From Planctomycetes bacterium UBA4800 (lineage in GTDB: Bacteria > Planctomycetota > UBA8108 > UBA8890 > UBA8898): 38,599 nucleotides of DNA. The stretch lies in contig DHGK01000125.1 of assembly GCA_002402755.1 (NCBI GenBank), forward strand, positions 7,822 to 46,420. Reading direction: 5' to 3'. The translations under genes and the position numbers were made by a program. How positions within the stretch are numbered: position 1 is the stretch's first letter; each line of letters opens with the position of its first letter. This document shows, one piece after another, positions 7,587 through 36,528 of this stretch. The notes under the pieces are model-generated. The model searched no databases, was not told the DNA's origin, and was given only the letters and a program-made list of their open reading frames with translations.

Positions 7587-7592
7587 GTCACC

Positions 7593-8654: not shown

Positions 8655-8676
8655 CGTACGAGCGTGAGGAGCAAGC

Positions 8677-9912
8677 ATGGCGTCGGTTAAGGAGCAACTT
8701 TCAGCCCACTGCGACAAGCTGGCGTTCGGCATCGTGGCGGTCATGGTGATCGCCATGATCGCCGTCACCTGGACGGGCGAGGACAAGATCTCGATCAGCC
8801 AGGACCGGATCGTGCAACACCTCAAGGCCATCGACGATCACAAGAAGGATGCGGAGCTGCTGCCCCCCGCGGAACCCCTCGATCCGAGGACGGACATCGC
8901 ACGGCGTTCGTCCAGGGCCTCGATCCCGAAGGATGCGTGGACGCCCTTCGCCATGGATGTCCAGCCTGCGGTCGTGCGCATCTACAGCAGGGCGGCGACG
9001 TTCGACTCCGTGCACGGGGAGCCGGCGATCACGAGCGTCGCCATAACCCGCGACGCGGAGAAGAAGAAGCCCGTCATCACGGTGACCTTCCGGTTCGGCG
9101 AGCTGATCGAGGTCGGCGACGCGGCGGCGCGCGTTGAGCGCCGGGCCGCCGGCACGACCGCGTGGCGGGTCGTCGCGACGATTCCGCATGCGGAGGGCAC
9201 GGACGTCTACACGTGCGTCGACGCCGATGTGGAGGCGGGCGCGAGCTACATGTACAAGGTGACGTCCACGGCGACTCGGCTGAAGTCGAAGTGGCGGGCG
9301 GATTCGGGCCCCACGAAGACGTGCAGGGAGCCGGCGCCGCCCGAGGCCGACCTCGGCAGCTACGCGGTTCCCGCGGACCTGCGGATGATGTTCGTCCAGG
9401 GGAAGGTCACCGACCTGTCCGGCCCGGGAGAGGGGTACTTCAACGTCGAGGCGTACGAGTACGCGGCGGGCGCGTCCGTCGTCGAGCGCATGATCAAGCG
9501 CGATGAGGTGCTCGGCCTGAACCGGAAGCCGGATGCCGCGAAGGATCTCCTTCCGCGCACGAGGTACTACCTGAACGTCGTCAAGCAGGGGGAGAAGGGC
9601 CTCGTGGCGGTGCTGAAAGACATCGACACGCGCAGGGAGATCCAGCTTCCGCAGGGCTCCTGGGTGCCGGGGTCGATCGAGTGCCCCAAGGCCTGGGAGG
9701 CGGCGGCCCCGCCGCCGCCGGCGGCGGAGGATGAGACCATCGCGCCGGAGGACGCGCCTCCGGCGGAGGCGGCGCCCGCGCCGCCGGAGTCCGAACCGGC
9801 GGCGCCCGACGAGCCCCCGGCCGAGGAAGAAACCGATCCCAAGGACGAACCGTCGGAGGATGAAGCAGGTGGGGCCGCCGAGGGCGATGCCGGCGGCGGT
9901 CCGTTCAAGTAG
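8677..9912 (+). CDS. Bitopic membrane protein with FN3-like beta-sandwich and PilP/GspC-HR-like segment, acidic Pro/Ala/Glu tail
   Basis: GAGGAG lies 5 nt upstream of the ATG. TM helix LAFGIVAVMVIAMIAVTW. FN3-like signature ...VITVTFRF...WRVVATIP...YTCVDADVEAGASYMYKVTS. A later beta-rich segment reads YYLNVVKQGEKGLVAVLKDIDTRREIQL. The roughly 70-aa C-terminal tail reads AAEDETIAPEDAPPAEAAPAPPESEPAAPDEPPAEEETDPKDEPSEDE. The PilP-like role is inferred from position. Confidence 0.55.
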   Translation: MASVKEQLSAHCDKLAFGIVAVMVIAMIAVTWTGEDKISISQDRIVQHLKAIDDHKKDAELLPPAEPLDPRTDIARRSSRASIPKDAWTPFAMDVQPAVVRIYSRAATFDSVHGEPAITSVAITRDAEKKKPVITVTFRFGELIEVGDAAARVERRAAGTTAWRVVATIPHAEGTDVYTCVDADVEAGASYMYKVTSTATRLKSKWRADSGPTKTCREPAPPEADLGSYAVPADLRMMFVQGKVTDLSGPGEGYFNVEAYEYAAGASVVERMIKRDEVLGLNRKPDAAKDLLPRTRYYLNVVKQGEKGLVAVLKDIDTRREIQLPQGSWVPGSIECPKAWEAAAPPPPAAEDETIAPEDAPPAEAAPAPPESEPAAPDEPPAEEETDPKDEPSEDEAGGAAEGDAGGGPFK

Positions 9913-9921
9913 AAGGAGAGC

Positions 9922-12528: not shown

Positions 12529-12655
12529 ACGGGACTTCAGGAGAACGCAGGGAGGAACGAGGCGGCGCCGCGGCGCGCGGACGCGGATTCCCGCGGGGCG
12601 CGCCGGCCGCAGCGAGGAGCATATGAGCGGACGAAGCAATCCAAAGGAGACGGGC

Positions 12656-15328
12656 ATGAGAAGGATCACTTCCGTTCTTGCGATCGGAGCACTCGTCGCG
12701 GCGGCCGGTTGCATGCAGCCGCAGAGGACGCGGCCGGCGCAGGCCGACGCCCCGACGAGATCATCGCAGCTCCGGGAGATCGACGAGCTGGAGCGCGCGA
12801 TGGAGATCGACGCGGCCGTGACGACGTCCGACGCGGCCCCGGCGCCGGACGCGGCTCCCATGCCCGCGCCGGCCCCGGCCGGGACGCTCCGGGCGGCCGA
12901 GGCCGCGGTCGCCGGGGCGGCCGATGAGAAGAAGAGCCTCAACCGCCAGATTGCAGCCGACTACATCGCGCGCGGCGACAAGAAGCGCGAGGGCGCGGAT
13001 TACCAGGCCGCGGCGGCGCTGTACGAGCAGGCGGTGAAGGCGGACGCGGAGAACGTCGAGGCGCGCGAGAAGCTGCGTCTGTCCGAGATGATGCTCGGCA
13101 AGCGCGACGCGTCCGTCGCGGCGGTCATGCAGGAGTGGAGCGCCGAGATGAACGTCGAGCGCGAGGCGCGCCTGAACGAGGTCGACCGCCTCATCGAGGA
13201 ATCCCTGAAGGCCATGACGGAGTACCGGCTCCAGGAAGCCCAGTTGATGCTCCAGCAGGCGAAAGCCCGGCTGGCGCTGTTCGAGGCCTCGACCGAGACG
13301 CAGGGCCGCCAGGCGCGCCTGGAGAACCTCCTGGTCCAGGCGAACGATCTCCTGCGGCGGCGCGCGGTCGAGACCCGCGAGCAGCAGGAAGCGGCGATCC
13401 GCACGGCGATCGAGAAGGACGCGGCGTTCCGCGACGAGCAGAAGAAGGAGCGGATCAGGGTGCTGGTCGAGGCCGCGAGCGAGGCCTACCGCCTGCAGGA
13501 TTACGCGCAGTGCGTGCAGATCTGCGAGGTCGTCCTGAAGGAGAATCCGCGCCAGATCCAGGCGCGCGCGCTCCTGAAGAAGTCCAGGGACATGGAGAAG
13601 TCCCTCTGGGAGCGGGAGCACGACGCGGCGCTCAAGGAGCACTCGAAGCTGACGTGGGAAGGGCTCGAGGATGCGGCCAAGCCGCCGTCGACCGCCTTCG
13701 AGTTCCCCGGCGAGGAGCGCTGGAACATCGTCAGGAAGCGCGAGGCCGATGTGCAGATCGGCATGATCGAGGAGTCCGAGGAGGTCAAGGAGATCAAGCG
13801 GCGCCTGGCGACCGCGCGGATCACGATCGACTTCGACAACAAGCCGCTCGCGGACGCCATCGACTACATCAAGAAGATCACCCAGATCAACATTCACATC
13901 GACAAGGACGTGGACCCCGAGGAGACGAAGGTCAAGCTCAACCTGACGCAGGTGAAGCTCCAGGATGCCCTCGAACTGATGATGCTGAACACGGGGCTGG
14001 CGTACACCTTCAGGAACAACGTCCTGACGATCACGGTGCCCGAGAAGGCCCGGGGCCTCGTTATCCTGAAGATCTACACGGTGACGGACATCCTGAGCAG
14101 GATCAGGGATTTCCCCGGCCCGAAGCTGGAGATCACGACTCCCGACGAGGAGACCGAATCCGGCGGCGGCCCCGGCGGCACCGGCTTCCAGTTCGAAGAG
14201 GGCGAGGAATCCAAGACGCTCGAGCCCGAGCAGCTCCAGAAGCTGGTGCAGGAGAGCACGGGCGGCCAGGACGTCTGGGACGGGGAGATCAACCGCATCC
14301 AGGTGCACCGCGGACAACTGCTCGTCGAGGCGAGCCCCGAACTGCACGCGAGGGTGGCCCGCGTGCTCGATGAGCTGCGCCAGGACGCCGACCTCTTCGT
14401 GGTCGTCAAGGCGCGGTTCGTCGACATCACGAACGATTTTCTGGAGGACATCGGCGTCGACTACCGCAATCTCAGCCAGCGCAACACGCCGTGGCGCAGC
14501 ACGTACAGCGGGCGCATCCACGACAGCCGGACGGGCGGGCAGGATCCGGGCTTCACCGACGCGCTGGGCGTGGAGAATCCGGAGCTGGTCGGGCGCATGC
14601 AGAACACCCTCGACGGCTACGCGAGCCTGATCCGCGGCGACCGCGTCTTCGGCGGCCCCGGCGGGCTGAGCGGCCTGAGCCTGCAGTTCATGATGGTCGA
14701 TCCGTACCAGATCAACGCGATCGTGCGCGCGGTCCAGGAGGAGAGCGGCGTCAAGTCGGTGATCGCGCCCGAGGTCACGGCGCACAACGGCCAGCGCGTG
14801 TACGTGTCGGTGATCACGCAGCGCTCGTACATCGCGGACTACGAGCTGGTGTCCGGCGGCACGACGTACACCCTGACGGAAGTCGCGGACCCGATCGTGC
14901 GCGTCAACGAGGAAGGCGTGGTGCTCGATGTGCGGCCGAGCGTGAGCGCGGACCGCAAGTACATCACGATCGATGTCCAGCCGACGCTCGCGACCCTCAT
15001 CGGCGGCGTGATCTCCACCGTGCTCATCAACCTCGGCACGGTCATGGCCGCGGCCATGCAGGTCCCGATCGGGCTGCCGAAGATGTCGATCCAGCGGACG
15101 TGGACGTCGGTCACCGTGCCGGACGGCGGCACGGTGCTCCTGGGCGGCTTCCGGAGCCTGGAGGAGCGCAAGTACCATTCCTCGATCCCGATCCTCGGGG
15201 ATATCCCGGTGCTGAACCTGCTCGTGAGCCGCAAGGCCGAGCTGCGGGAGAAACGCAGCCTGATCATCCTGCTGACGGCGAAGCTGGTCGACCTCCGGCA
15301 GGAGGAAATCGAGCGCTTCGGCCAGTAG
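12656..15328 (+). CDS. Secretin (GspD/PilQ family) with lipoprotein signal and N-terminal TPR-like region, paralogue 2 (putative liposecretin)
   Basis: AAGGAG lies 6 nt upstream of the ATG at 12656. MRRITSVLAIGALVAAAGC is a signal peptide with a lipobox. TPR-like units: GADYQAAAALYEQAVKADAENVEAREKL and YRLQDYAQCVQICEVVLKENPRQIQARALL. N0-like domain: ITIDFDNKPLADAIDYIKKITQINIHID...GLAYTFRNNVLTITVP. Secretin core: ARFVDITNDFLEDIGVDYRN ... VTVPDGGTVLLGGFRSLEERKYHSSIPILGDIPVLNLLVSRK...LIILLTAKLV. It is collinear with paralogue 1. Confidence 0.9.
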   Translation: MRRITSVLAIGALVAAAGCMQPQRTRPAQADAPTRSSQLREIDELERAMEIDAAVTTSDAAPAPDAAPMPAPAPAGTLRAAEAAVAGAADEKKSLNRQIAADYIARGDKKREGADYQAAAALYEQAVKADAENVEAREKLRLSEMMLGKRDASVAAVMQEWSAEMNVEREARLNEVDRLIEESLKAMTEYRLQEAQLMLQQAKARLALFEASTETQGRQARLENLLVQANDLLRRRAVETREQQEAAIRTAIEKDAAFRDEQKKERIRVLVEAASEAYRLQDYAQCVQICEVVLKENPRQIQARALLKKSRDMEKSLWEREHDAALKEHSKLTWEGLEDAAKPPSTAFEFPGEERWNIVRKREADVQIGMIEESEEVKEIKRRLATARITIDFDNKPLADAIDYIKKITQINIHIDKDVDPEETKVKLNLTQVKLQDALELMMLNTGLAYTFRNNVLTITVPEKARGLVILKIYTVTDILSRIRDFPGPKLEITTPDEETESGGGPGGTGFQFEEGEESKTLEPEQLQKLVQESTGGQDVWDGEINRIQVHRGQLLVEASPELHARVARVLDELRQDADLFVVVKARFVDITNDFLEDIGVDYRNLSQRNTPWRSTYSGRIHDSRTGGQDPGFTDALGVENPELVGRMQNTLDGYASLIRGDRVFGGPGGLSGLSLQFMMVDPYQINAIVRAVQEESGVKSVIAPEVTAHNGQRVYVSVITQRSYIADYELVSGGTTYTLTEVADPIVRVNEEGVVLDVRPSVSADRKYITIDVQPTLATLIGGVISTVLINLGTVMAAAMQVPIGLPKMSIQRTWTSVTVPDGGTVLLGGFRSLEERKYHSSIPILGDIPVLNLLVSRKAELREKRSLIILLTAKLVDLRQEEIERFGQ

Positions 15329-24604: not shown

Positions 24605-25354
24605 ATGAAGTCGTCGTGGACGATCATCTTCGATTTCGGCAACACGCTCGCGCCCTTCAACGAGCGCGAGGCCGCGGCGATCACCGCGGACATCGCCGCA
24701 TGCGCGGAGCGGCGGGCCGGCATCGGCGCCGCGTCGTTCACGGCCTCGTGGCTCGCAGAACGCGATGCGGATTTCAGGAGGTCGGCGGTGTCGGGCGAGG
24801 AACACGATTTCGGCGCGCGCCTGTCGCGCGTGCTCGCGGGCGCCGGCCGTGCGCCGGAGCCCGCGCTGTGCGCCGAGATCGAGGCGTGCGCGGTCGAGAG
24901 CTTCGTCAGGCACGTGCGGGTGGACGCCGAAATCGGCGCGGCGCTGCCGGCCCTCGCGGCGCGCTGCAGGCTGGGCGTGCTCTCCAACTACCTGCTGTCC
25001 GAGCCGATTCACCGGGTGCTTGCGCGCGACGGGGTGCACGGGCTGTTCGCGAAGGTCATCGTTTCGAAGGAAACGGGCTTCGCCAAGCCGGATCCGCGAT
25101 GCTTCGATGCCATCGTGCGTGCGCTCGCGCTGCAGAGGGAGCGGACGGCGTACGTGGGCGATGATTACCGGATCGATGTCGAAGGAGCGCTGAGGGCGGG
25201 GCTGCGGCCCGTGTGGACATGGGCCTTGCGGACGCCCCTTCCGGCGGAACCGGACACGCCGCATGCGGCCGTCCGGCGCCTCCGGACGCGCGGCGAATAC
25301 CTCCGGTTCCTGGGCGATCCCGACGCGGTGCTCGACGCCGCCGCGAGTTCCTGA
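24605..25354 (+). CDS. HAD-superfamily hydrolase with variant motif I (DxGNT)
   Basis: IIFDFGNTLAPF has Gly in place of the second Asp of motif I, as in YihX-type HAD-IA members. GVLSNY (motif II), KETGFAKPDPRCF (motif III Lys) and YVGDDYRIDVEGALRAGL (motif IV). Confidence 0.8.
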   Translation: MKSSWTIIFDFGNTLAPFNEREAAAITADIAACAERRAGIGAASFTASWLAERDADFRRSAVSGEEHDFGARLSRVLAGAGRAPEPALCAEIEACAVESFVRHVRVDAEIGAALPALAARCRLGVLSNYLLSEPIHRVLARDGVHGLFAKVIVSKETGFAKPDPRCFDAIVRALALQRERTAYVGDDYRIDVEGALRAGLRPVWTWALRTPLPAEPDTPHAAVRRLRTRGEYLRFLGDPDAVLDAAASS

Positions 25355-25406
25355 ATCCCCCCCGGCCTCCTTGCCGTGAACGCGTGCGGGGCGAACGCAG
25401 GGCAAT

Positions 25407-25427
25407 CAGCCTACAGCCTACAGCCTC
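25407..25427. repeat. Tandem heptamer (cagccta x2, then cagcctc)
   Basis: Read directly: cagcctacagcctacagcctc. It lies between the convergent genes and overlaps the first two plus-strand bases of the minus-strand stop triplet (25426-25428). Confidence 0.7.
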
Positions 25428-26793
25428 ACGGTCCGCACTCGTAGGTGCTGACCGCGCAGGACAGCGCATCGGCCGTCGGGTCGGCGCCGCAGTCGATCGA
25501 GGGCGCCGGCAGGGGCGGGCCGGCGGGGATGAACAGCAAGCCGAGCAGCCGTATGCCGTCCGCGATGTTGACCTTGCCGTCGTCGTTGGTGTCGGCCGCC
25601 TTGAGGCAGCCGGGCTCCCTGGCGCCGGCGAACAGGAATCCGAGCAGGGCGATCGCGTCGCCGATGTTGCGGCGGTCATCCTCGTTGACGTAGCCGCGCC
25701 GGAACGGCGCGTCGTCTCCGACAACGATGATCGCGCCGTGCTCGAGGCGCGGGGCGATGCTCACGACGTCCAGGACGCGGCCGTCGTCATCGCGAAGCGC
25801 CGTGAGCACCTTGTTGTCGATCGGAGGCTGGCCGAGCCCGTCCGTGAACATCACGGGGATGCGCGCGCCGGCCTGCGCGCCGCCGGCGACGAGGAAATGC
25901 GCGGCCAGAATACGCTGCGCCGTGCCGGCGGGAAGCACGTGATCCTGGTAGGGGAAGATGTAGTCGAAGACCATGCCGCAGCCCGCCCAGCCGCGGCCGG
26001 GCAGAAGCTCGTTCTCGACGTGCAGCACGAACTGCTCGACGACCTGCGGGGCGAGCAGCGCCTCGATCGGGAGGCCGCAGTAGTTGATGGAGCGGACGCA
26101 CGGGTTCTCCGAGTACGGCGCATCCTCGCGCAGGCGCAGGACGTCGTTCTCGAACGCGAGCGCCATCTGGATCCCCGCGAGCGGTTGCGCGTGATCGACC
26201 TCGACGAGCATGCGGGCCGCGTCGCCCGGCCGCGCGTAGACGGTGCTCAGGCGCACGACGTTGTGATTGCGCACATCGACCACGCCGGCCGTCAGCGCCG
26301 GCAGCACGCTGTAGCCGCCGTTCACGGCGAACGTGTTGCTGACCGGGGGATCGCCCATGTTGTTGCGCGGGAGAATCGTGTACGGCGCCGGCTGCATCGC
26401 CTCGGTGCTGCCGAAGACGATCCACCCGATGCAGCGCTCTTCCCCGTTCGGCGCCGGCGGGAATCCCGAGGATGTCGAGGGAGCGTCCCACATGAACAAG
26501 ACGGCGATCACGGCGTGGTCCTCGGCGGGGACATCGACCACGCGGACGTACTCGACGGCGCTCGCGGGAACGTACTGCTCGTTGACGGCGAAACGGAGCA
26601 CGCGGAGGTGCCTGCCCTCGTACGAGAACGCGAGGGACAGGCCGTGGATGGTCTCGGCGTTGTGCACCCAGACGGGGAGGGCGGCTTCATCGCCGGGATC
26701 GATGGCGACCGAGCCGAAGCGCAGCGTGTCTTCCGCGCACAGCGGGGCGGACCACAGGACCGCGCCGAGGACAACGAGCATCTCTCGCATCAT
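25426..26793 (-). CDS. Secreted protein with two cohesin-like beta-sandwich modules and a C-terminal dockerin-like double EF-hand module
   Basis: Signal peptide MMREMLVVLGAVLWSAPLCAED. Cohesin-like pattern LRFGSVAIDPGDEAALPVWVHNAETIHGLSLAFSYEGRHLRV, and a second copy VYARPGDAARMLVEVDHAQPLAGIQMALAFENDVLRL. Dockerin-like repeats YVNEDDRRNIGDAIALLGFLF and DTNDDGKVNIADGIRLLGLLF. The cohesin assignment comes from motif pattern only. Confidence 0.6.
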   Translation of the reverse strand: MMREMLVVLGAVLWSAPLCAEDTLRFGSVAIDPGDEAALPVWVHNAETIHGLSLAFSYEGRHLRVLRFAVNEQYVPASAVEYVRVVDVPAEDHAVIAVLFMWDAPSTSSGFPPAPNGEERCIGWIVFGSTEAMQPAPYTILPRNNMGDPPVSNTFAVNGGYSVLPALTAGVVDVRNHNVVRLSTVYARPGDAARMLVEVDHAQPLAGIQMALAFENDVLRLREDAPYSENPCVRSINYCGLPIEALLAPQVVEQFVLHVENELLPGRGWAGCGMVFDYIFPYQDHVLPAGTAQRILAAHFLVAGGAQAGARIPVMFTDGLGQPPIDNKVLTALRDDDGRVLDVVSIAPRLEHGAIIVVGDDAPFRRGYVNEDDRRNIGDAIALLGFLFAGAREPGCLKAADTNDDGKVNIADGIRLLGLLFIPAGPPLPAPSIDCGADPTADALSCAVSTYECGP

Positions 26794-26873
26794 GCCTGTT
26801 CCCCATCACTCATGCACACACGACCGGCCTGCGCGCGCCGCGCCCGGCACGATGGGCTGCGGCAGATCCGCGC

Positions 26874-28961
26874 TCAGCACGACAGCTCATCGGCGAGCGT
26901 CGGATCCGTGCCGGGCGCCGGAAACGGCGCCGGCGGAGGCGGTCCGCTGCCGAAAAGATAGAAGAGCAGATACACCGGATCGGATATGTCGATCCTCCCG
27001 TCGTCGTTCACATCCGCGGCGTCCAGGCAGGTGATGTCGGGACCCTTCTCGAAGAGGTACATGAGGATGAAGACGACGTCGGCGACATTGACGGATGCAT
27101 CGCCGTCGGTGTTGCCGCGCACGAAGGGCCTCCCGGTCGGGAATGCGAGGATGCGGAAGATCGCGTTGTTGGCGGGGCTCGCCGCGTACACGATGTGCTC
27201 GCGGTAGGCGAAATCCTTGATCTGGTCGGCCTGCCGGTAGCCGGCGGGAACGTACGCCTGGAGGTCGAAGGTGGTGACGTTGCAGAGGGCGTCGACCTCG
27301 CGGATCGCCGCGCCGGCCACGCCGAAGTGGAAGTGTCCGCTCTGGGGGCAGCGATCGAGCCCGCGCGCGGGCGTCGCCTGGTACAGCCCCGACGGGGTGC
27401 ACAGGCGGCGGACGAGCGTGTTGTCGGGTCCGGGGGGGAAGCCGTAGCGGTCCACCCAGACGATCCGATGGAGGTTGTCATCCAGCACGCCCAGGAAGTA
27501 GTCGCCGTTGGCCGGGTCGAAGGCCAGCGATCCGACCTTGGGCGATGGATCATCCGCGCCGCCTGCCGGGAGCTGCAGCGGCACGGCTCCGCCCACGGCC
27601 GTTCCGTTCCGGCGCAGCTTCTGCACGACGTTCGTCGCGTCGTTGCCGAGCATGAGAAGGGTCTCGGGCGGATCGACGATCGGCGCGTTCGGCCAGAAGG
27701 TCAGCCCGTACGGCGCGCCCGATTGCAGGGTCACATCGAAGTACCCGACCGGCGCGAGATCGGGGGTGAAATGCCGCACGCGGTAGAGCTTCGTGTCGAC
27801 CGCCTTGGCGTCGGTCACCCAGATGTCGCCCGTCTCGGGATCGACGGCGATGCCGGAGACGGTCCCGCCGGCGAACGGAATCCAGCTCAGCACGGCGCCG
27901 CGACGGTTGCGCAGCGTGCGGCTCCGGTCCAGGCCGCGCACGAGCCCCTGCTTGGGGCGCACGGTGTACGTGAGCACCCCGGCAGGCGCATCGATGTCGG
28001 TGTACGTGACGGCGTTGCCGCCGAGCTGCGCGATGGCGGTGCCGTTCCTCAGGATGGACAGCTCCGTGTACGCGCCGAGGAGCCCGCTGCCGTTGTTCCG
28101 CCACGCCAGCACGACGGCGCCGTTCTCCTGGGGCCTGCAGGCGAGCTCGGAGACCGGCAGGAACGAGGGCCAGACGCCGCTCAGCTTCGCGAGCGCCGTC
28201 TCGTTCGTGCGCGAGAGCAGGACGAGGATCGTATCGGCGGCGACCGCGATGCCGCGGATCACGCCGTCGCCCGCGGCGCCGATCGGGATCTCGAACGGAT
28301 ACTGCGCGCCGTCCACGGAGTTGAGGATCACGACCGTGTCGGCGCGGCCTGCGAAGATGTCTCCCCAGGGAACGTACAGGAGTTGACCCTCGGCGCGCGA
28401 CGCGTAGGCGAGGCCCGTCCCGTGGAGATAGGTCTCCGCGGGCACGTCGCCCGGGAACGGAGCGGTCTTGAGCAGCGCGCCGCTCGATGGATCGAAGCCG
28501 AGCACTCGGTCGTTCTCCGAGTCGACCGACCAGAGCACGTTGCCCGAGGCATCGAACGCGAGGCCGGCGAGCGCGGCGCCCGCGGGCGCCTGGAGCAGGA
28601 CGAACGCGCCGATCCCGTCGCCGCTGGCCGGATTGACGCGCACGATCTCGAACGTGCTGCCGTTGAGCACGATGAGATTCGATTGCGCGCCATCGTACGC
28701 GATGCCGCGGCACGCCGGCTTGAACGGAGGCAGCGGCGCAGCCGCGCCGAACGGGTGCGGAATCGTCCCCGAGAGCACGAGCGCCGCGGACAGGCGGTGG
28801 ATCAGGCCGTCCGCCTCGCCGAGCGCCCAGACGGTGCCGTCGGGTGCGAACGCGATGTCGCTCCACCGCTGGTCCGGGAAGGACGCCGTTCCGAGCAGAT
28901 CGCCCGCGGCGCCCGATGCAATCGAGGCGCCGACTACGAGACACAGCAAGGCTTGCTTCAC
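26874..28961 (-). CDS. Secreted beta-propeller (NHL/YVTN-like repeats) + FN3-like + dockerin-like module protein
   Basis: GTG start at 28961 with AGGAG 8 nt upstream. Signal peptide VKQALLCLVVGASIASGAAG. Repeated blade-like units: DIAFAPDGTVWAL, GIAYDGAQSNLIVLN, GLAFDASGNVLWSVDSENDRVLGFD, GIAVDPETGDIWVTD and SLAFDPANGDYFLGVLD. FN3-like AVVLAWRNNG...YTELSILRNGTAIAQLGGNAVTYTDIDAPAGVLTYTVRP. Dockerin-like GNTDGDASVNVADVVFILMYLF and DVNDDGRIDISDPVYLLFYLF. Only the 3' 695 codons of track ORF 26874..31259 are coding. Confidence 0.75.
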   Translation of the reverse strand: MKQALLCLVVGASIASGAAGDLLGTASFPDQRWSDIAFAPDGTVWALGEADGLIHRLSAALVLSGTIPHPFGAAAPLPPFKPACRGIAYDGAQSNLIVLNGSTFEIVRVNPASGDGIGAFVLLQAPAGAALAGLAFDASGNVLWSVDSENDRVLGFDPSSGALLKTAPFPGDVPAETYLHGTGLAYASRAEGQLLYVPWGDIFAGRADTVVILNSVDGAQYPFEIPIGAAGDGVIRGIAVAADTILVLLSRTNETALAKLSGVWPSFLPVSELACRPQENGAVVLAWRNNGSGLLGAYTELSILRNGTAIAQLGGNAVTYTDIDAPAGVLTYTVRPKQGLVRGLDRSRTLRNRRGAVLSWIPFAGGTVSGIAVDPETGDIWVTDAKAVDTKLYRVRHFTPDLAPVGYFDVTLQSGAPYGLTFWPNAPIVDPPETLLMLGNDATNVVQKLRRNGTAVGGAVPLQLPAGGADDPSPKVGSLAFDPANGDYFLGVLDDNLHRIVWVDRYGFPPGPDNTLVRRLCTPSGLYQATPARGLDRCPQSGHFHFGVAGAAIREVDALCNVTTFDLQAYVPAGYRQADQIKDFAYREHIVYAASPANNAIFRILAFPTGRPFVRGNTDGDASVNVADVVFILMYLFEKGPDITCLDAADVNDDGRIDISDPVYLLFYLFGSGPPPPAPFPAPGTDPTLADELSC

Positions 28962-29075
28962 GGTGTGCGCTCCTGTGCGGTACACACTCTTCAAGTGCAG
29001 GTGTCCATCGCTGCCTGCCGCCGTGCGAGCAGGGGAATCGCGACTGTACAACAGACCCGTGGGCGGCAAGCGTCC

Positions 29076-29104
29076 ATTATAAAGGCGCCGGCCGGGACTG
29101 ACAA
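29076..29104 (-). promoter_or_regulatory. Sigma70-type promoter on minus strand (TTGTCA-17 nt-TATAAT) for the dockerin-module gene pair
   Basis: The minus strand reads TTGTCA (29104-29099), a 17-nt spacer, then TATAAT (29081-29076). It lies about 115 nt upstream of the GTG at 28961. Confidence 0.65.
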
Positions 29105-29289
29105 CGTTCCGCATCGGCGCGCCGGTGCGTCGCTGATCTAAGGCCAAGACGCGCGGAGGGTTAGCGGGGGCGGCCGCGGCGGTCTCGGGTGCGCGGCGCG
29201 CGCGCCCCGCAGTGCGGTCCGCCGCGACGGCGCGACGGCGGGAAGATGACAGGATATCAAGGAAGATCGGGGCGTCGATGCGCGGCCCC

Positions 29290-29346
29290 GTGCGACACCG
29301 CTCGCGGCGCGACGGCGCGCATCCGGCGCGCGGCGAGCGGTGTCGC
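29290..29346. repeat. Long perfect inverted repeat (15-bp arms, 27-nt GC-rich spacer)
   Basis: tgcgacaccgctcgc (29290-29304) is the exact reverse complement of gcgagcggtgtcgca (29332-29346). The spacer itself contains a gcgcgc...gcgcgc palindrome. It sits in the divergent intergenic region between the dockerin operon and the DUF2203-like gene. Confidence 0.85.
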
Positions 29347-29396
29347 ATGCCGCCGCGGGACAGCCGGTAGAAAACGGGCGGCGGGCTGAAAAAGGC

Positions 29397-29425
29397 TTTG
29401 CTTTTTTGCCCCGGTCCCTCTACGA
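29397..29425 (+). promoter_or_regulatory. Candidate promoter for DUF2203-like gene (TTGCTT-17 nt-TACGAT)
   Basis: TTGCTT at 29397-29402, a 17-nt spacer, then TACGAT at 29420-29425. It lies 35 nt upstream of the ATG at 29460. The match to consensus is only moderate. Confidence 0.4.
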
Positions 29426-29459
29426 TGGCACGTAGTGCCCGTGAGCATCGAGGTTCCGC

Positions 29460-29963
29460 ATGAAAAAAAGGCACCGCCTGGAGATTCTCTCCTCCGTCGA
29501 GGTCAACAATCGGCTGCCGTTGGTGAAACGCATCGTGCGCGACATACGCACGGTCCATCGCGAGCGCAAGCGCAACGAGAAACGGTTCGCATACTTCAGG
29601 AACTGCTTCCGGAAAGTCGTGTCCCGCGAGGTCGAGGAGACCGTCGAGAAGATACGGATGGAACTCGGCGCCATGGACAGCGATCTGGACGAGCTCAGGC
29701 GCGAGATCTCCTCTCTGGGGGGCATCCTGAAGGATTCGGAGCGCGGATGGGTCGATTTCTTCTCGGAGAAGGACAACCGCCTCGTGTTCCTGTGCTGGCG
29801 TCCCGGCGACAAGGAAGTCCTGTACTGGCACGAGATCGACAAGGACCACAACGACGAGGACATGGCCCGCTACCCCCTCCAGCACGATCATTGCCGCGGC
29901 GAGCACGGCGCGGGCGAGCACGAGCCCCGCAGCGAGCACCACAGCACGCCGGAGAACGTGTAG
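29460..29963 (+). CDS. DUF2203-family protein with His-rich C-terminal tail
   Basis: The N-terminal helical part and the segment GGILKDSERGWVDFFSEKDNRLVFLCWRPGDKEVLYWHE resemble the DUF2203 consensus as I recall it (G..lKd...GLvDFp...g.ev.LCW..GE..i..WH). The tail reads HNDEDMARYPLQHDHCRGEHGAGEHEPRSEHH. The region is visibly less GC-rich than its neighbours. Confidence 0.6.
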   Translation: MKKRHRLEILSSVEVNNRLPLVKRIVRDIRTVHRERKRNEKRFAYFRNCFRKVVSREVEETVEKIRMELGAMDSDLDELRREISSLGGILKDSERGWVDFFSEKDNRLVFLCWRPGDKEVLYWHEIDKDHNDEDMARYPLQHDHCRGEHGAGEHEPRSEHHSTPENV

Positions 29964-30107
29964 CGAGTTCAGCGCGCCGCGCGCGCTTCCGGCCTCGGCA
30001 CCCTTCCGTCCCATGGCGTCGAATCCCCCGCCTGAGGTACAATCGCCGCGCCGCCGCCGCGGGCGGCGGCATGGTCGCGGGCCGGGCCCGCGGTGGGAGA
30101 CGCCGCA

Positions 30108-31034
30108 ATGACGCACAAACTCGTCATCCTCGGCAGCGGGCCCGCGGGCCTCACGGCCGCGCTGTACGCGGCCCGCGCCGACCTGGCGCCCGTGGTGATC
30201 TCGGGCATGATGGCCGGCGGCCAGCTCACGCGCACGAGCGAGGTCGAGAACTTCCCCGGCTTTCCCGACGGCATTCTCGGGGGCGAGCTGATGGAGAAGT
30301 TCCGCGCCCAGGCCGCGCGCTTCGGCGCCGTGTTCATCGACGGCAAGGACGTGACTTCGGTCGACGTGCGCGCGCGGCCGTTCGCGGTCGTGCTGGATGA
30401 CGAGCGCATCGAGGCCGGCGCGCTCATCATTGCCACCGGGGCATCCCCGCGCATGCTGGGCCTGCCGAACGAGGAGCGCCTCTTCGCCCGGGGCGTGAGC
30501 ACGTGCGCCACCTGCGATGGCGCCTTCTTCCGCGGCAAGAACCTCGTCGTCGTGGGCGGCGGCGATTCCGCGGCGGAGGATGCGGTATTCCTCACGCGGT
30601 TCGCAACGGCGGTCACGCTGGTGCACCGGCGGGGCGAGCTGCGGGCGAGCAAGATCATGCAGCACAAGGTGCTCTCGCACCCCAAGATCACCGTCCAGTG
30701 GCACACCGTGATCGCGGATATTCTCGGCGCCGATGCCGGCAGGGTGACGGGGGTGCGCATGAAGGATGTACGCACGAACAGGGAGTGGGACGCGCCCTGC
30801 GACGGCGTCTTCGTCGCCGTCGGGCACACGCCGAACACGGCGCTCTTTGAGGGCCGGCTCGAACTGGACCAGGGCGGCTACATCGTCACGCGCGGCGGGA
30901 CGGCCACGAGCGTCGAGGGCGTCTTCGCGTGCGGCGATGTCCAGGATCACGTGTACCGGCAGGCCGTCACGGCGGCGGGCTCGGGCTGCATGGCGGCCAT
31001 CGATGCCTCCCGGTACATCGAGCAGCACGAGTAG
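30108..31034 (+). CDS. trxB: Thioredoxin-disulfide reductase
   Basis: [19 protein letters not shown] (FAD site), redox-active [25 protein letters not shown] (NADPH site) and FACGDVQD...[15 protein letters not shown] prefer the ATG at 30108; the GTG at 30093 is an alternative. Confidence 0.95.
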
Positions 31035-31041
31035 GGGGCGC

Positions 31042-31392
31042 ATGCGCGTCAGCAGGGAGTTCACGTTCTCGGGCGCGCATCGGCTTCCGGAGTACCGGGG
31101 CAAGTGCGAGCGCCTGCACGGGCACACGTGGCGCCTGCGGGTCACGGTGCGTGCGCCCGTCCAGCCGCACGGCATCGCGTTCGACTTTGCGGAGCTGGAC
31201 CGCGTGGTCGGCGAGCGCGTCCTGTCGGCGCTCGACCACTCGGACCTGAACGCGCTCATGCCCGATCCCTCCGCGGAGCGGATCGCCCAGTGGGTGTGGC
31301 GCGCGCTCGCCGGTCTTCCGCTGGAGGAGGTGCGGGTGTGGGAGAGCGAGCGGTGCTTCGTCGCGTACCGGGGCGAGGGCGACGATGCGTGA
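31042..31392 (+). CDS. queD: 6-carboxy-5,6,7,8-tetrahydropterin synthase (PTPS family)
   Basis: FTFSGAHRLP..., the QueD signature CxxxHGH in KCERLHGHTW, FDFAELDRVV and LDHSDLN. The protein is 116 aa. Confidence 0.88.
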   Translation: MRVSREFTFSGAHRLPEYRGKCERLHGHTWRLRVTVRAPVQPHGIAFDFAELDRVVGERVLSALDHSDLNALMPDPSAERIAQWVWRALAGLPLEEVRVWESERCFVAYRGEGDDA

Positions 31393-31993
31393 GGAGGAGC
31401 TCAAGTACCGGGTGCCCGATCTGCGCGCACTCGATGCGGTCGCCGCGCTTCTGGGCGAGCCGGCGCGCATCGAGCGCCAGCGCAACCGCTACTACGACAC
31501 CCCGGAGCTGGCGCTGAACGCACGGGGCGTGCTCGTGCGTCTTCGGGTCATGGAGGGCGCGGGGCGGGCGGTGCTGGCGATCAAGATCGCGGAGCGCATC
31601 GAGGCGGGGCTGATCGTCGCGGACGAGGAGGAGCGCGAGCTGACGGGCGCCGAGACCGCGGCGCTCCGCGCCGATCCGGGCGCATTCCTCGCGGCGTTGC
31701 CCATGGCCCTCGCGCGCACGGCGCTGGCCGGGGTCGCGACCGCGCGCCTCGCCTGCGCGGGCGAGCTCGTCACGCGCCGGCGCTGCTACGCGGTCCCCGC
31801 GGGGCTCCTGGCGCTCGATGCGGTGTCCCTGCCCGGCGGCGGCGAGTTCGAGATCGAACTGGAGACGGCGGACGCCGCCGCGGGCCGGGTGTTCCTGGAG
31901 GACCTGTGCGCGCGGGCGGGCGTCGAGGCGTGGAAGGAGGCGGAACCCAAGAGCGCGCGCCTCTTCCGGCGGCGGGCGCGTTCGGTAGAATAG
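31385..31993 (+). CDS. CYTH-domain protein (triphosphate tunnel metalloenzyme family)
   Basis: N-terminal EEELKYRV matches the ExExK CYTH signature. Then ERQRNRYYDTP...VLVRLRV, LAIKI and EFEIELE beta-strand motifs. The ATG at 31385 overlaps the queD 3' end by 8 nt (ATGCGTGA). Confidence 0.75.
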   Translation: MREEELKYRVPDLRALDAVAALLGEPARIERQRNRYYDTPELALNARGVLVRLRVMEGAGRAVLAIKIAERIEAGLIVADEEERELTGAETAALRADPGAFLAALPMALARTALAGVATARLACAGELVTRRRCYAVPAGLLALDAVSLPGGGEFEIELETADAAAGRVFLEDLCARAGVEAWKEAEPKSARLFRRRARSVE

Positions 31994-32027
31994 ATGCTCC
32001 CATCGCGGCACGAAGAGAGGTGCGCAC

Positions 32028-32897
32028 ATGCTTGTTCGCGCGGCGCTTCCGAAGGGAAGCCTGGAAAAACCGACGTTCGCGCTGCTGGCGCAGGCCGGCT
32101 ACAACCTCACGATCGGCTCGCGGTCGTACGTCCCGGCCGTCGATGACGAGGAGCTGCACGTGCGTCTCGTGCGGGCGCAGGAGATCCCGCGCTACGTCGC
32201 GCAGGGCGTCTTCGACATCGGCATCACGGGCCACGACTGGGTTCTGGAGACGAACGCCGATGTGGAGGAGGTGCTGGAGCTCGTCTACAGCAAGGCGAGC
32301 ATGAACCCCTGCAAGTGGGTGCTCGCGGTGCCCGAGGACTCGCCGATCCGCGCGCCGGAGGATCTCCGGGGGAAGCGCATCGCGACCGAGCTCGTCAACG
32401 TCACGAAAAGGTACCTGGCGGCGCGGCGCATCGAGGCGGAGGTGGAGTTCTCGTGGGGCGCGACCGAGGCGAAACCGCCCGACCTGGTCGACGCGATCGT
32501 CGACATCACCGAGACGGGCCGGTCGCTCGCCGCCAACAAGCTCAGGATCGTCGACGTGCTCCTGGAGACGACCACGCGCCTCATCGCCGGCAAGGAGAGC
32601 CTGAAGGATCCGTCGAAGCGCCGGAAGATCGAGAACTTCGCCATGCTGCTTGAGGGGGCCCTCGTCGCGCAGGGCATGGTGGGGATGAAGATGAACGTGA
32701 GCGCGGCGGATCTTCCCAAGGTGCTCGCAGTGCTTCCCGCGATGAAGGACCCCACGGTGAACCACCTGCGGGACAAGGACTGGTACGCGGTCGAGACGGT
32801 GCTCAAGGAGCGCCAGGTGCGCGATCTGGTGCCCGACCTGAAGCGCGCCGGGGCGCGCGACATCATCGAGTACCCGTTGAACAAGGTGATACTGTAG
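32028..32897 (+). CDS. hisG: ATP phosphoribosyltransferase, long form
   Basis: AALPKGSLEKPTFALL..AG, RAQEIPRYVAQGVFDIGITGHDW and DAIVDITETGRSLAANKLRIV. The C-terminal regulatory domain is present (289 aa). AGAGAGG SD lies 7 nt upstream. Confidence 0.92.
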   Translation: MLVRAALPKGSLEKPTFALLAQAGYNLTIGSRSYVPAVDDEELHVRLVRAQEIPRYVAQGVFDIGITGHDWVLETNADVEEVLELVYSKASMNPCKWVLAVPEDSPIRAPEDLRGKRIATELVNVTKRYLAARRIEAEVEFSWGATEAKPPDLVDAIVDITETGRSLAANKLRIVDVLLETTTRLIAGKESLKDPSKRRKIENFAMLLEGALVAQGMVGMKMNVSAADLPKVLAVLPAMKDPTVNHLRDKDWYAVETVLKERQVRDLVPDLKRAGARDIIEYPLNKVIL

Positions 32898-32925
32898 CCC
32901 GCGCGCGCGCGGGAAAGGTGCGCGG

Positions 32926-34137
32926 ATGGACGGGGAGCGCGAGCGTCAGGTTGCGTCGATACTCGATGCCGTGCGCCGCGAGGGCGATGCGGCCGTCCGG
33001 CGGTACACGCGGCAGTTCGACGGCGTGGAGATCGCCGGCCTGCGCGTTGCGCGCGACGTCCTCGCGCGCGCGGAGGCCGCGCTGCCGGCGGAGCTTCGCG
33101 AGGCCATGCACGAGGCCGCGGCCCGCATCCGGCGCTTTCACGAGGAATCGCGCCCGCGCGATCGGTTCTTCACGGGGCCCGATGGGGAGCTTCTGGGCGA
33201 GCAGTGGACGGCCCTGGACAGCGTCGGCATCTACGCCCCCGGCGGGCGCGCCGCCTATCCCTCGACCGTGCTCATGGCGGCGATCCCGGCGGGGGTCGCC
33301 GGCGTGCCGCGGATCGCCGTGACGAGCCCTCCGGGCGCGAAGGGCGTGTCGCCGCTCGTCTGCGCGGCGTGCGCCATCGCGGGCGTCGAGGAGCTGTACC
33401 AGGCCGGCGGCGTCCAGGCGATCGGCGCGCTCGCCTACGGCACCGAGTCGATTCCGGCGGTGGACAAGATCGTCGGCCCGGGCAACGCGTACGTGACCTG
33501 CGCCAAGAAGCTCCTGTACGGCACGGTCGGCATCGACTTTCTGGCCGGCCCGAGCGAGGTCGTCGTCATCTTCGACGCGACCGCGCCGGCAGACGCCGTC
33601 GCGGCGGAATTGCTCGCCCAGGCGGAGCACGATCCCGATGCGCGCGTCTTCTGCTTCGCGGCCGGCGATGCGTCCCCCGCGGAGGTCCAGGCTGCCGCCG
33701 GCCGTCTCGGGGAAGGGCTGCCGCCGCATGTCGCGCAGGTTCTCGAGAAGCCGGGGACGTTTCGGAGCTTCCCCGACATCGCATCGGCCGTCGAGGCGTC
33801 GAACGCGGTCGCGCCCGAGCATCTCGCGCTCAAGGTACGCGACCCGCGCGCGGCGCTCGCCCTCGTGCGGTGCGCGGGCGCCGTGATGCTCGGCGGTACG
33901 ACGCCGGTGTGCTTCGCGGACTACTTCGCGGGCCCGAGCCACGTGCTGCCCACGGGCGGCACGGCGCGCTTCAGTTCGGGCCTCGGCACCGCGGACTTCA
34001 TGCGCTGCACGCACGTCGTGCAGGCGCCGGCCGCGTACGCGCGGCGGTGGGGGAAGGTCGTGGCGGCGTTCGCCAGGGCCGAGGGGCTCGAGGCGCACGC
34101 CCGCAGCGCGGAGCGCGCGGCGGAGGCCGAACCATGA
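32926..34137 (+). CDS. hisD: Histidinol dehydrogenase
   Basis: [69 protein letters not shown] and [15 protein letters not shown]. Confidence 0.93.
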
Positions 34138-35204
34138 AGCCATCGGATCTCGTGCGCCGCGCCGTCGCCGCGGTTCCGGCGTACCGCCTGGTCGAGGAGG
34201 CCGCCGCGGTCAAGCTCAACCAGAACGAATCGCCGTGGGACGTGCCGCCCGACGTCAAGGAGGAGATCTTCGCGCGTCTTCGGGCGCGGCCGTGGAACCG
34301 ATACGCGCAGGAGGCGCCCGGGCGGGTCGCGGCAGCGCTGGCCGAGCTCAACGACTGGCCGGTCGAGGGCATCGTGCTCGGCGGCGGCTCGAACCTGCTG
34401 CTGGAGGCGGCGACGTTCGCGGCGGTGCGGGAGGGGCAGGCGGTCTGCGCGCCGCGCCCCGGGTTCGCCTTGTACGGGCTGCTTGCCGGTCTCGCGGGCG
34501 CGCGGGCGGTGACGATTCCATTCGGGCCGGGTTTCGCCTACGACGCGGATGCCTGGTGCGCGGCCGTGGCGTCGGTGCGGCCGGCGCTCACCTTCCTGTG
34601 CACGCCCAACAATCCGACCGGTTCGTTCATGAACCGCGACGGCGTCCGGGCGGTGGCGGATGCGTGCCCCGGCATCCTCGTCATCGACGAGGCGTACCGG
34701 GAGTTCGCGGGCGAGGATCGCCGCGATGTGCTCGGCGCGTACGACCGCGTGATCCTCTCCAGGACGTTCTCCAAGGCCTTCAGCGCCGCGGGGGTCCGCC
34801 TGGGATACCTGCTCGCGGATCCGGGCCTGGCGGCCGAGATCCGCAAGCTCGTGCCGCCGTTCAACATCAGCATCCTGACGGCGACCGCGGCCGAGGTGAT
34901 GCTCGAGCGTCGCGACCTCTTCAGCGGGCGCGTGGGGGTGCTGTGCGCGGAGCGCGAGCGCGTGCAGGCCGCGCTCGGCGGCATGGCCGGGGTGGCGACG
35001 TTTCCGTCGCGGGCCAATTTCTTCCTGGTTGAAACACCCTACGACGCGGAGGCGCTCGCAGCCGAGATGAAGGCACGGGGGATTCTCGTCCGCACGGGAA
35101 GCGACGAGGAATTACGGCACATGGTCCGGGTGAACGTCGGGACGCGCGAGGAGAACGACCGCTTCCTGGCGGCGCTCGGCGAGCTCATGGGAGGACGGCC
35201 GTGA
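34134..35204 (+). CDS. hisC: Histidinol-phosphate aminotransferase
   Basis: VKLNQNESPWDVP, TPNNPTG, VIDEAY.EF, and the PLP lysine context LSRTFSKAFSAAGVRLGY. The ATG at 34134 overlaps the hisD stop (ATGA). The upstream 310 codons of track ORF 33204.. are shadow sequence over hisD. Confidence 0.92.
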   Translation: MKPSDLVRRAVAAVPAYRLVEEAAAVKLNQNESPWDVPPDVKEEIFARLRARPWNRYAQEAPGRVAAALAELNDWPVEGIVLGGGSNLLLEAATFAAVREGQAVCAPRPGFALYGLLAGLAGARAVTIPFGPGFAYDADAWCAAVASVRPALTFLCTPNNPTGSFMNRDGVRAVADACPGILVIDEAYREFAGEDRRDVLGAYDRVILSRTFSKAFSAAGVRLGYLLADPGLAAEIRKLVPPFNISILTATAAEVMLERRDLFSGRVGVLCAERERVQAALGGMAGVATFPSRANFFLVETPYDAEALAAEMKARGILVRTGSDEELRHMVRVNVGTREENDRFLAALGELMGGRP

Positions 35205-35794
35205 CGACACCGGAACGTACGCGCGATGCCGAGGCGGCGCGCGCCACGAAGGAGACGACGATCAAGGTGCGCCTGCGCCTGGGCAGCCGCGAGACGCGCG
35301 CGGCGACGGGTGTGGGCTTCTTCGACCACCTGCTCACGGCGGCGAGCTTCCACGGCCGCTGGGGCCTGGTCATCGAGGCGGCGGGCGACATTCACGTCGA
35401 TTACCACCACCTGGTCGAGGATGCCGGCCTGGTCATTGGCGGCGCGTTTCGGGACCTGGCCGCCGCGTCGCCGGCGATCGCCCGCTTCGCGAGCGCCTGC
35501 GTGCCCATGGACGAGGCGCTCGCGCACGTGGCGGTGGACGTCTCGGGCCGCGGCGGCGCGCATGTCGATCCCGCGATCGCCGAGGGCGCGGCGCGCGATT
35601 TCGACGCGGGCCTGGTGCGGGAGTTCCTCATCGGGTTCGCGCGCGCCGCGGGGATCACGCTGCACGCGCGCCTGCTCGCCGGCGAGGATACGCACCACCG
35701 GCTCGAGGCGCTCTTCAAGGCGCTCGGCATCTGCATGGCCCGGGCGTTCGAGCCGGCGGAGGGCGGCGTGCCCTCGACCAAGGGCGCGCGGTGA
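35201..35794 (+). CDS. hisB: Imidazoleglycerol-phosphate dehydratase (monofunctional)
   Basis: TKETTIKVRL, TGVGFFDHLL, DYHHLVEDAGLVIG, EDTHHRLEALFKALG and VPSTKG. The GTG at 35201 overlaps the hisC stop (GTGA). Confidence 0.92.
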   Translation: MTTPERTRDAEAARATKETTIKVRLRLGSRETRAATGVGFFDHLLTAASFHGRWGLVIEAAGDIHVDYHHLVEDAGLVIGGAFRDLAAASPAIARFASACVPMDEALAHVAVDVSGRGGAHVDPAIAEGAARDFDAGLVREFLIGFARAAGITLHARLLAGEDTHHRLEALFKALGICMARAFEPAEGGVPSTKGAR

Positions 35795-36528
35795 CGCACG
35801 GCATGCGGTTCATTCCCGGGATCGACCTGCGCGGCGGGCGCATGATCCGCCTGCTGCGCGGCGAGCTCGCCAGGGAGTTCGATTACGAGCCGAGCCCTGT
35901 CGAGTACGCGGCGGCGCTCGTCGAGGCCGGGGCGCGGTACCTGCACGTCATCGACCTGGGCGCGGCGTTCCAGGAGCCGCCGAGCACCGCGGCGATCCGC
36001 GCGATCGTCGCGCGCGCGGGCGTGCCCGTGCAGGTGGGGGGAGGGATCCGGAGCGAGGAGCGGCTCAAGGAGGTGCTCGATGCCGGCGCGGACCGGGTCA
36101 TGCTGGGCACGCGGGCGCTCGCCGATCCGGAGTTCCTGGAGCGCGCGGCGGCGATCGCCGGGCCCGCGCGCGTGATGCCGGGGCTCGACTTCAAGGGCGG
36201 CAAGCTCGCCGTCGACGCGTGGCGCACGACGATCGATGCCGACCCCGCGGCGCTGGGAGCGCGTTTCCGCGCGCAGGGCCTGGAGCGGCTGCTCGTGACG
36301 GCGATCGATCGCGACGGGACGTTCCTGGGGCCGGACGTCGAGCTGTGGCGGGCCGCGGCGGCGATGACGGGAATGCGAGTCATCGGCGCGGGCGGCATCG
36401 GGTCGATGCAGGACCTGGAGAAGATCATCGCCGCGGACATCCCCGGCCTGGAGGGCGTCGTCGCCGGGAGGGCGCTCCTGGAGGGGCGGATCGATCCGGC
36501 CGCGGCCCTGCGGCTGTTCGCGGAGTGA
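35791..36528 (+). CDS. hisA: ProFAR isomerase (HisA)
   Basis: FIPGIDLRGGRMIRLLRG, LHVIDLGAAF, VQVGGGIRS, LGTRAL, LDFKGGKLAVDAW, TAIDRDGTFLGPD and VIGAGGIGS. The GTG at 35791 overlaps the hisB stop (GTGA). Confidence 0.88.
   Translation: MTHGMRFIPGIDLRGGRMIRLLRGELAREFDYEPSPVEYAAALVEAGARYLHVIDLGAAFQEPPSTAAIRAIVARAGVPVQVGGGIRSEERLKEVLDAGADRVMLGTRALADPEFLERAAAIAGPARVMPGLDFKGGKLAVDAWRTTIDADPAALGARFRAQGLERLLVTAIDRDGTFLGPDVELWRAAAAMTGMRVIGAGGIGSMQDLEKIIAADIPGLEGVVAGRALLEGRIDPAAALRLFAE

Follow-up and report, generated by a model that had tools for sequence, protein, structure and literature searches.

Adaptor scaffoldins of cellulosomes, e.g., Ruminococcus flavefaciens ScaC and Acetivibrio cellulolyticus ScaA/ScaB, combine one or more cohesins with a dockerin of their own. 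Non-cellulosomal cohesin- and dockerin-like modules, including the Archaeoglobus fulgidus cohesin 2xdh, were reportedly described by Peer et al. in 2009 (FEMS Microbiol Lett 291:1). Catalogues of such modules outside cellulosomes extend to all three domains of life, and the function of the modules has been called unknown (PMC5244752). For freshwater Planctomycetes, a 'planctosome', i.e., a cohesin-dockerin complex that does not serve cellulose degradation, has been hypothesised (Andrei et al. 2019, ISME J, PMC6461901), and a cellulosome survey mentions a planctomycete with a two-cohesin scaffoldin. The present analysis concerns two adjacent minus-strand genes on a stretch of 38,599 nucleotides (nt) of Planctomycetes bacterium UBA4800 (assembly GCA_002402755.1, contig DHGK01000125.1, positions 7,822 to 46,420), hereafter called the window, whose numbering is used throughout. 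The product of the first gene (695 residues) is called A and that of the second (455 residues) is called B. All features of A and B given below lie on the minus strand.

As judged from sequence comparison and fold prediction, B (gene at 25426..26793) is a divergent but genuine signal peptide-cohesin-cohesin-dockerin protein, i.e., a mini-scaffoldin or adaptor, of a large family with a fixed layout. A (gene at 26874..28961) is predicted to consist of two beta-propellers followed by a dockerin of another subtype. Our preferred reading, which we hold to be somewhat more probable than improbable, is that the pair forms a two-gene non-cellulosomal cohesin-dockerin assembly cassette, unrelated to cellulose breakdown, in which A would dock on B. 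Cohesin-dockerin systems outside cellulosomes are already discussed for Planctomycetes and the novelty is lower than a preliminary description of this DNA implied; a literature search found no paper describing the gene pair itself.

Cohesins, dockerins and propellers of the two proteins

Cohesins are beta-sandwiches of about 140-150 residues with a jelly-roll topology. The AlphaFold model of B, built on ten homologues, has all-beta modules at aa 22-178 and aa 179-360 with predicted local distance difference test (pLDDT) values of about 90, followed by three helices of lower confidence. Module 1 (26260..26730) has a pLDDT of about 90-96 and module 2 (25714..26259) of about 75-94. When the model is compared with the PDB by Foldseek, almost all matches are cohesins, for both modules. 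The type II cohesin dyad 3l8q, which module 2 also matches, is found at E = 2e-12, and the single type I cohesins 3ul4_A, 6kgd_A and 1aoh_A give target-normalised template modelling scores (TM-scores) of 0.78-0.82 with root mean square deviations of 2.4-3 A. Also matched is 2xdh, the Archaeoglobus cohesin that is not cellulosomal (target-normalised TM-score 0.70). The preliminary description had read a cohesin-like pattern twice in the 455-residue protein and had proposed that the two N-terminal modules fold as cohesin-type sandwiches; the pattern is indeed present twice, and the predicted structure (pLDDT about 90, TM-score about 0.8 to cohesins) agrees with the proposal.

Profile comparisons lead to the same result. 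A profile of B (N-terminal 363 residues) and five homologues has seven matches in the PDB, six of which are cohesins; the match to 3ul4_A (E = 6e-4) spans module 1. The same profile recovers 1101 cluster representatives at E <= 0.001 among 1.84 billion proteins. Among 57 members of this family scanned with Pfam, 13 contain Cohesin at E <= 0.01 (best 3e-8) and 25 contain Dockerin_1. Five long family matches were also scanned: all carry Pfam Cohesin, and four of them have 6-12 copies (E = 1e-67 to 1e-116). A hidden Markov model (HMM) made from B-type modules alone matches these proteins too, and its domain starts coincide with those of Pfam Cohesin. The layout is fixed: of the 149 best representatives of the B family, 90 combine two cohesins with a C-terminal dockerin, and the modules group by position across lineages (identities of 31% for 1-1, 27% for 2-2 and 23% for 1-2). 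B is considered a genuine cohesin protein because the evidence from fold, profile, in-register alignment and architecture agrees.

Module 2 of B contains an insertion with two conserved cysteines (C232 and C239) and a short helix at aa 226-250 (region approx. 26226-26090, aa 190-235). This insertion is present in B and its close homologues and is missing from distant relatives of B. Neither a carbohydrate-binding module (CBM), an X-module, an S-layer homology (SLH) domain nor a sortase signal was found in B, which itself lacks any anchor to the membrane or the cell wall. Three long relatives (P0099, P0158 and P0102) are giant proteins of 1600-3200 residues with 6-12 Pfam Cohesin domains, SprB, cadherin or PKD repeats, and a C-terminal sorting domain of type IX secretion; they look like non-cellulosomal multi-cohesin surface proteins, presumably of Bacteroidota-like organisms.

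The six-frame translation of the window contains only two copies of a double EF-hand module, located at the C-termini of A (aa 613-695, 26877..27125) and B (aa 364-455, 25429..25704). The type I dockerin is built of two tandem segments of about 22 residues, each with a 12-residue EF-hand-like loop and a helix after it. The loops are NTDGDASVNVAD and DVNDDGRIDISD in A, YVNEDDRRNIGD and DTNDDGKVNIAD in B; both loops of A and loop 2 of B have Asp or Asn at positions 1, 3, 5, 9 and 12. Helices are predicted after each loop in A and B, and the module of B is modelled as three helices (pLDDT 50-68). Pfam Dockerin_1 (PF00404) is matched by 9/9 A orthologues at E <= 0.1 (best 7e-9), and the profile of the A family matches PDB dockerins at E = 6e-5; B has weak matches to PDB dockerins. 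The sole NCBIfam match of the pair is that of A, via the dockerin of CelK, the scan of B giving nothing. Taken as a whole, these comparisons support the identification of both C-terminal modules as dockerins.

The two modules had been described at first as the same dockerin-like module. On the contrary, they belong to two conserved subtypes, with two cysteines in A and four in B. In the paired loci, dockerins of A type have two cysteines and end with P-x-P-[FYH]-P-x-x-G-x-DPT-x-x-D-x-[LF]-x-C (tail PPPPAPFPAPGTDPTLADELSC in the window). Those of B type begin with FRRG and have four cysteines and a Cys-containing C-terminal tail, which is CGADPTADALSC(x6)C in the window, conforms to CG-x-DPT-x-D-x-L-x-C-(5-6)-C in the eight lineages aligned first, and is more varied in further metagenome lineages. 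The linker cysteine and one C-terminal cysteine are invariant, which suggests a disulfide clasp between them. Within A, the dockerin is also the region that varies least: distant lineages share about 56-58% identity in it vs. about 32% in the propellers.

A is composed of propeller 1 (aa 23-262, 28176..28895, pLDDT about 85), a middle beta module (aa 268-340, 27942..28160, six predicted strands, pLDDT about 50-60) and propeller 2 (aa 347-605, 27147..27923, pLDDT about 80 over aa 370-510 and lower after). The best Foldseek matches of the model are tandem propellers such as LRP6 E1E2 (E = 1e-14). A profile of nine A sequences matches the NHL-derived Pizza6 propellers at E = 1e-10 (propeller 1) and WD40/WRAP-T propellers (propeller 2). 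The Pfam NHL repeat reaches 19.9 bits in propeller 2, for a cut-off of 20, and is matched by 4/9 orthologues. The middle module has no Pfam fn3 match and a weak profile match to the N-terminal domain of YesW (E = 0.014), thus an FN3/Ig-like nature is tentative. Of the initial reading of A as a double beta-propeller/FN3 protein with a dockerin, the tandem propellers (by profile and Foldseek) and the dockerin hold, and the FN3 part is reduced to a beta module of about 70 residues and low confidence. A word-indexed homologue search for A gave five relatives, and its repetition with the nine-sequence profile added none.

The invariant columns in the alignment of A orthologues are mainly Gly, Pro and Trp plus aspartates of the blades. 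An SGL or phytase-like enzyme was considered and rejected, the Pfam hits being weak and sub-threshold and no metal-ligand set being seen among the invariant columns. No CAZyme (carbohydrate-active enzyme) domain was found in A. Since no conserved catalytic set is seen, a binding or structural role is inferred, and A is more probably a binding protein than an enzyme.

Both proteins appear to be of secreted type, as had been proposed, with a hydrophobic, signal-peptide-like N-terminus on each. The predicted signal peptide of A (VKQALLCLVVGASIASGAA, about aa 1-19, 28905..28961) was read from the sequence, and a hydrophobic N-terminus is present in all orthologues. That of B (about aa 1-20, 26734..26793, ending PLCA|ED) was read in the same manner, has pLDDT values below 50 in the model and is kept in homologues. 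Lipoprotein anchoring was rejected for both proteins: the early cysteines lie outside a lipobox and are not conserved.

Conservation and expression of the gene pair

Related loci, designated by L-numbers, were compared, the A-like neighbours of B relatives being detected with the propeller region alone. An A-like gene is located directly upstream of B, on the same strand, in L001/2, L003-6, L013/14, L012, L015/16, L017 and L021, A being only 30-47% identical in the paired loci. The contigs of L018, L019, L020 and L022 are too short to include the upstream gene. No locus with a full-length relative of A departs from the A-B order. An independent scan of metagenomes, starting from A, gives a cohesin-dockerin gene (two or three cohesins) immediately downstream in 7/7 loci with near-full-length A; in control loci that merely have this dockerin type, an open reading frame (ORF) with a cohesin module is nearby in 15/69 (Fisher p = 8e-5). 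The nearest reference genome is the metagenome-assembled genome Planctomycetes bacterium ADurb.Bin069, from an anaerobic digester, with a B 78% identical.

The neighbours of the pair differ between lineages. In four distant lineages (L012, L015, L017 and L021) the gene immediately upstream of it, in the same orientation, encodes a class II tRNA synthetase of Asp/Asn type, with metK near the pair in L012 and L015; in the lineage of the window it lies instead between a DUF2203 gene and a HAD hydrolase gene. Since different neighbours surround a kept pair, A and B have moved as a unit. In all of these settings the cassette has core genes as neighbours. A functional link between A and B is thus well supported by these genomic comparisons. 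Three loci contain more cohesin genes: (i) in L017 (4449-5693), a 414-residue cohesin-cohesin-dockerin protein with an A-like two-cysteine dockerin tail is encoded between A and B; (ii) in L027 (7584-8504), an extra cohesin-dockerin gene lies beside the pair; (iii) in L030 (5930-9884), A is followed by three cohesin-bearing genes, one with three modules. These extra genes suggest a hierarchical network.

The minus-strand promoter proposed earlier, TTGTCA-17-TATAAT ahead of two genes 80 nt apart, can be read directly in the sequence (29076..29104): TTGTCA at 29104-29099, a spacer of 17 nt and TATAAT at 29081-29076. This sigma-70-like site is the only one found in 25200-29500 and has 11/12 consensus positions, vs. 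0.1 +/- 0.4 sites expected in shuffled sequences. The -35 and -10 hexamers are both kept in L003 and L001, with a changed spacer sequence, i.e., the pattern that a working promoter would show. The leader of gene A (28962..29075) contains a CACGGGTCTGT block (29061-29051), about 15-25 nt downstream of the -10 hexamer, and the Shine-Dalgarno sequence AGGAG (28974-28970), 8 nt ahead of the GTG start at 28961. The CACGGGTCTGT block, a possible operator or leader element without a match in Rfam, is conserved in the window, L003 and L001, the flanking leader being variable.

The A-B gap (26794..26873) is exactly 80 nt long and contains no promoter-like site; no terminator-like hairpin was found in 25200-29500, this gap included. 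Its counterparts in L015 and L013 measure 14 and 71 nt, respectively.

The limits of gene A are based on the G+C of third codon positions (GC3 frame analysis), the alignment of orthologues and the structure model. The start codon and the ribosome-binding site are kept in relatives, whose proteins begin at the same residue. The mechanical ORF of 1461 residues at 26874-31259 was rejected as a gene: its extension upstream of A to 31259 is an artefact of high G+C, stop codons being rare in DNA of about 70% G+C, the value of the window. Very long spurious ORFs are seen on both strands, and this one overlaps gene A as well as the divergently oriented genes of the DUF2203 protein and of thioredoxin reductase; as they are typical of DNA with 70% G+C, ORF length alone is misleading here. 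The codon-position analysis gives two minus-strand genes flanked by plus-strand housekeeping genes. As for B, its homologue P0002 (L003, L004, L005) is annotated 29 residues too long (484 residues, start VLNAAPRK, overlapping the end of A); by alignment, the conserved start is an MM codon pair, in P0002 as in the window.

A possible assembly and its rivals

In the proposed cassette, one sigma-70-type promoter would most likely give a bicistronic A-B transcript, and the two proteins would be exported by means of their signal peptides and located outside the cell. B would act as a small adaptor scaffoldin, with two cohesin sockets, its own dockerin plug and no anchor of its own; A would be the cargo, i.e., two NHL/YWTD-like propellers ending in the different, highly conserved dockerin subtype. 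The dockerin of A would plug, with calcium, into a cohesin of B, and the weak co-divergence described below points to cohesin 1. The dockerin of B would plug either into cohesin 2 of another B, leading to chains, or into a cohesin of an unseen anchoring protein. By either route, multiple copies of the propeller protein would be presented in the envelope or extracellularly.

The choice between the cohesins of B was approached by a mirror-tree/partial Mantel analysis of 13 paired loci, with the divergence of the propellers as control. The A dockerin co-diverges with cohesin 1 (r = 0.46) and the B dockerin with cohesin 2 (r = 0.45), vs. about 0.05 for the cross pairs, and this pattern survives the omission of any single locus. 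When one locus per close group is kept, it disappears in one subset (all r about 0.2) and is held in the other. Moreover, partial Mantel tests are over-optimistic on related sequences. The pairing of A dockerin with cohesin 1 and of B dockerin with cohesin 2 is thus a hint only, and not a robust one.

This last result and the properties of the test count against the proposed assembly, as do several other observations. Pfam Cohesin (PF00963) has no match in B at E <= 1, i.e., B is below its gathering score, and Dockerin_1 gives 22.0 bits for A and 15.4 bits for B, under a gathering score of 22.9 bits. The cohesin-like and dockerin-like assignments of the preliminary description, once scanned with Pfam HMMs, thus obtain sub-threshold dockerins and no cohesin. 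Loop 1 of the B dockerin (YVNEDDRRNIGD) has a Tyr at calcium-ligand position 1. The whole AlphaFold model of A, i.e., two propellers with a beta module between them, is of moderate quality (pLDDT 63). No A-like neighbour accompanies the B relative in L009 or on the P0005 contig. A search of sequencing runs finds the region only in DNA runs (hydrocarbon metagenome) and in no RNA run. Finally, this dockerin type is found on at least 493 metagenome stretches, i.e., on hundreds of other proteins, so that the cohesins of B may serve other partners.

The abundance of the dockerin also fits a first rival, which we regard as rather unlikely: A and B would both be passengers on a third, unseen scaffoldin with many cohesins and an anchor, the cohesins of B would recruit proteins other than A, and the two genes would adjoin merely as members of the same larger system. 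Besides the dockerins on many unrelated proteins (the above metagenome stretches and the 69 dockerin-only loci), the existence of large multi-cohesin proteins in the same cohesin family, the missing anchor of B and the further cohesin-dockerin genes after A in L017, L027 and L030, suggestive of a larger network, are in agreement with it. On the contrary, a strict A-then-B order in distant lineages and in different neighbourhoods exceeds what co-membership needs, and the co-divergence of A dockerin and cohesin 1, though weak, points to direct pairing. A variant closer to the proposed cassette is that B is a self-polymerising linker, its four-cysteine dockerin entering cohesin 2 of the next B and cohesin 1 holding A. 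We consider this improbable; if true, a head-to-tail chain or lattice would display many propellers in a conserved, housekeeping-linked envelope or surface structure, and the cohesin-dockerin pair would serve a structural and not an enzymatic purpose in these Planctomycetota.

It may also be asked whether, in this phylum, the module is a cohesin plug at all. It could be a C-terminal export, surface-attachment or folding module stabilised by calcium and disulfides, the sandwiches of B binding glycans, the envelope or the like. The module is always C-terminal, has a conserved Cys-bearing tail that is absent from classical dockerins and far outnumbers adjacent cohesin genes (15/69 loci), and the literature states that the function of cohesins and dockerins outside cellulosomes is unknown (PMC5244752). 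Nevertheless, both EF-hand loops and both dockerin helices are intact, the cohesin family is homologous in sequence and fold to dockerin-binding cohesins, and the stereotyped, abundant cohesin-cohesin-dockerin proteins fit a plug-and-socket network best; we give this explanation little credence. A chance adjacency of two secreted proteins that have nothing in common but their type of C-terminal module is scarcely credible: dockerin-bearing genes are common in these genomes, but the pair is kept in 7/7 loci vs. 15/69 controls (p = 8e-5), with sequence identities of about 30% and varying genomic contexts. To conclude, the domain identifications are sound, and physical assembly of A and B appears to be the most likely mechanism.

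Cohesins and dockerins occur widely in non-cellulosomal settings, but a partner or a role has been assigned to hardly any of them. The A-B cassette is of moderate interest mainly because it is tractable in this respect: one small adaptor and one cargo are encoded side by side, and with two distinguishable dockerin subtypes and two cohesins the question of who binds whom reduces to four combinations. If the pairing is true, a cohesin-dockerin assembly would be used by a diderm bacterium for the display of a binding or structural protein, and new orthogonal, disulfide-stabilised plug-and-socket pairs would become available for protein engineering. If binding fails, the result would be informative about the real role of the abundant planctomycete 'dockerins'.

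Surroundings of the locus and comparison with known systems

No glycoside hydrolase was found anywhere in the 38.6-kb window, which extends the earlier statement that none is visible nearby; the other genes of the window that were scanned are housekeeping genes or belong to a pilus/secretin cluster. This cluster (5358-15328, plus strand) encodes a protein with a PilM/FtsA-like ATPase fold (5358-7586), two ORFs without Pfam match (7593-8654 and 8677-9912) and two consecutive large secretins, one with TPR repeats (9922-12528) and one with an STN domain (12623-15328). Secreted proteins such as A and B might be exported through this cluster, but nothing links them to it. On the other side of the pair (31385-36528, plus strand), a gene with a CYTH domain precedes a histidine run composed of hisG, hisD, an aminotransferase gene, hisB and a HisA/HisF-family gene, and this run is also syntenic with the A-B pair in L001, L003 and L013. 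Rfam and tRNA scans of the window gave nothing.

B resembles the adaptor scaffoldins of cellulosomes: it is likewise of secreted type, with cohesin sandwiches followed by a dockerin with two EF-hand loops, and the expected role, i.e., bridging a dockerin-bearing partner to another cohesin, is the same. The A-B locus differs from cellulosomes in that (i) it contains no glycoside hydrolase, CBM, X-module, SLH domain or sortase signal; (ii) its host is a diderm planctomycete; (iii) the cargo is a propeller protein; (iv) B lies below Pfam Cohesin detection. The dockerins of A and B differ from those of cellulosomes by two or four conserved cysteines and a proline-rich tail. With the reported intramolecular clasp of the R. 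flavefaciens ScaA dockerin (PMC3821032), they share the idea of dockerin ends held together for stability; in A and B the clasp would be a disulfide, as suggested by the conserved cysteines.

The propellers of A match, by profile and by fold, secreted six-bladed NHL/YWTD propellers (Pizza, derived from the PknD sensor, and LRP6 E1E2). This likeness is at the level of the fold class only, and A has no EGF linker. With regard to SGL and phytase-like enzymes, A appears to differ by its invariant columns, which do not include the metal-ligand sets expected of them.

The planctosome (PMC6461901) shares with the A-B pair the principle of an adaptor carrying both a dockerin and a cohesin. Its own parts are a lamin-tail-anchored protein of 2,210 residues, proprotein-convertase P domains, an adaptor with hyalin repeats and dockerin-bearing peptidases; none of these parts was found in A, B or their neighbours in the window. 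The A-B pair has instead a tandem propeller as its cargo and an adaptor with two cohesins. As in other non-cellulosomal systems of cohesins and dockerins, the context has no link to cellulose, and 2xdh is among the fold matches of B. The A-B pair differs from these systems in being a two-gene cassette of fixed order, found in many planctomycete lineages and equipped with two dockerin subtypes.

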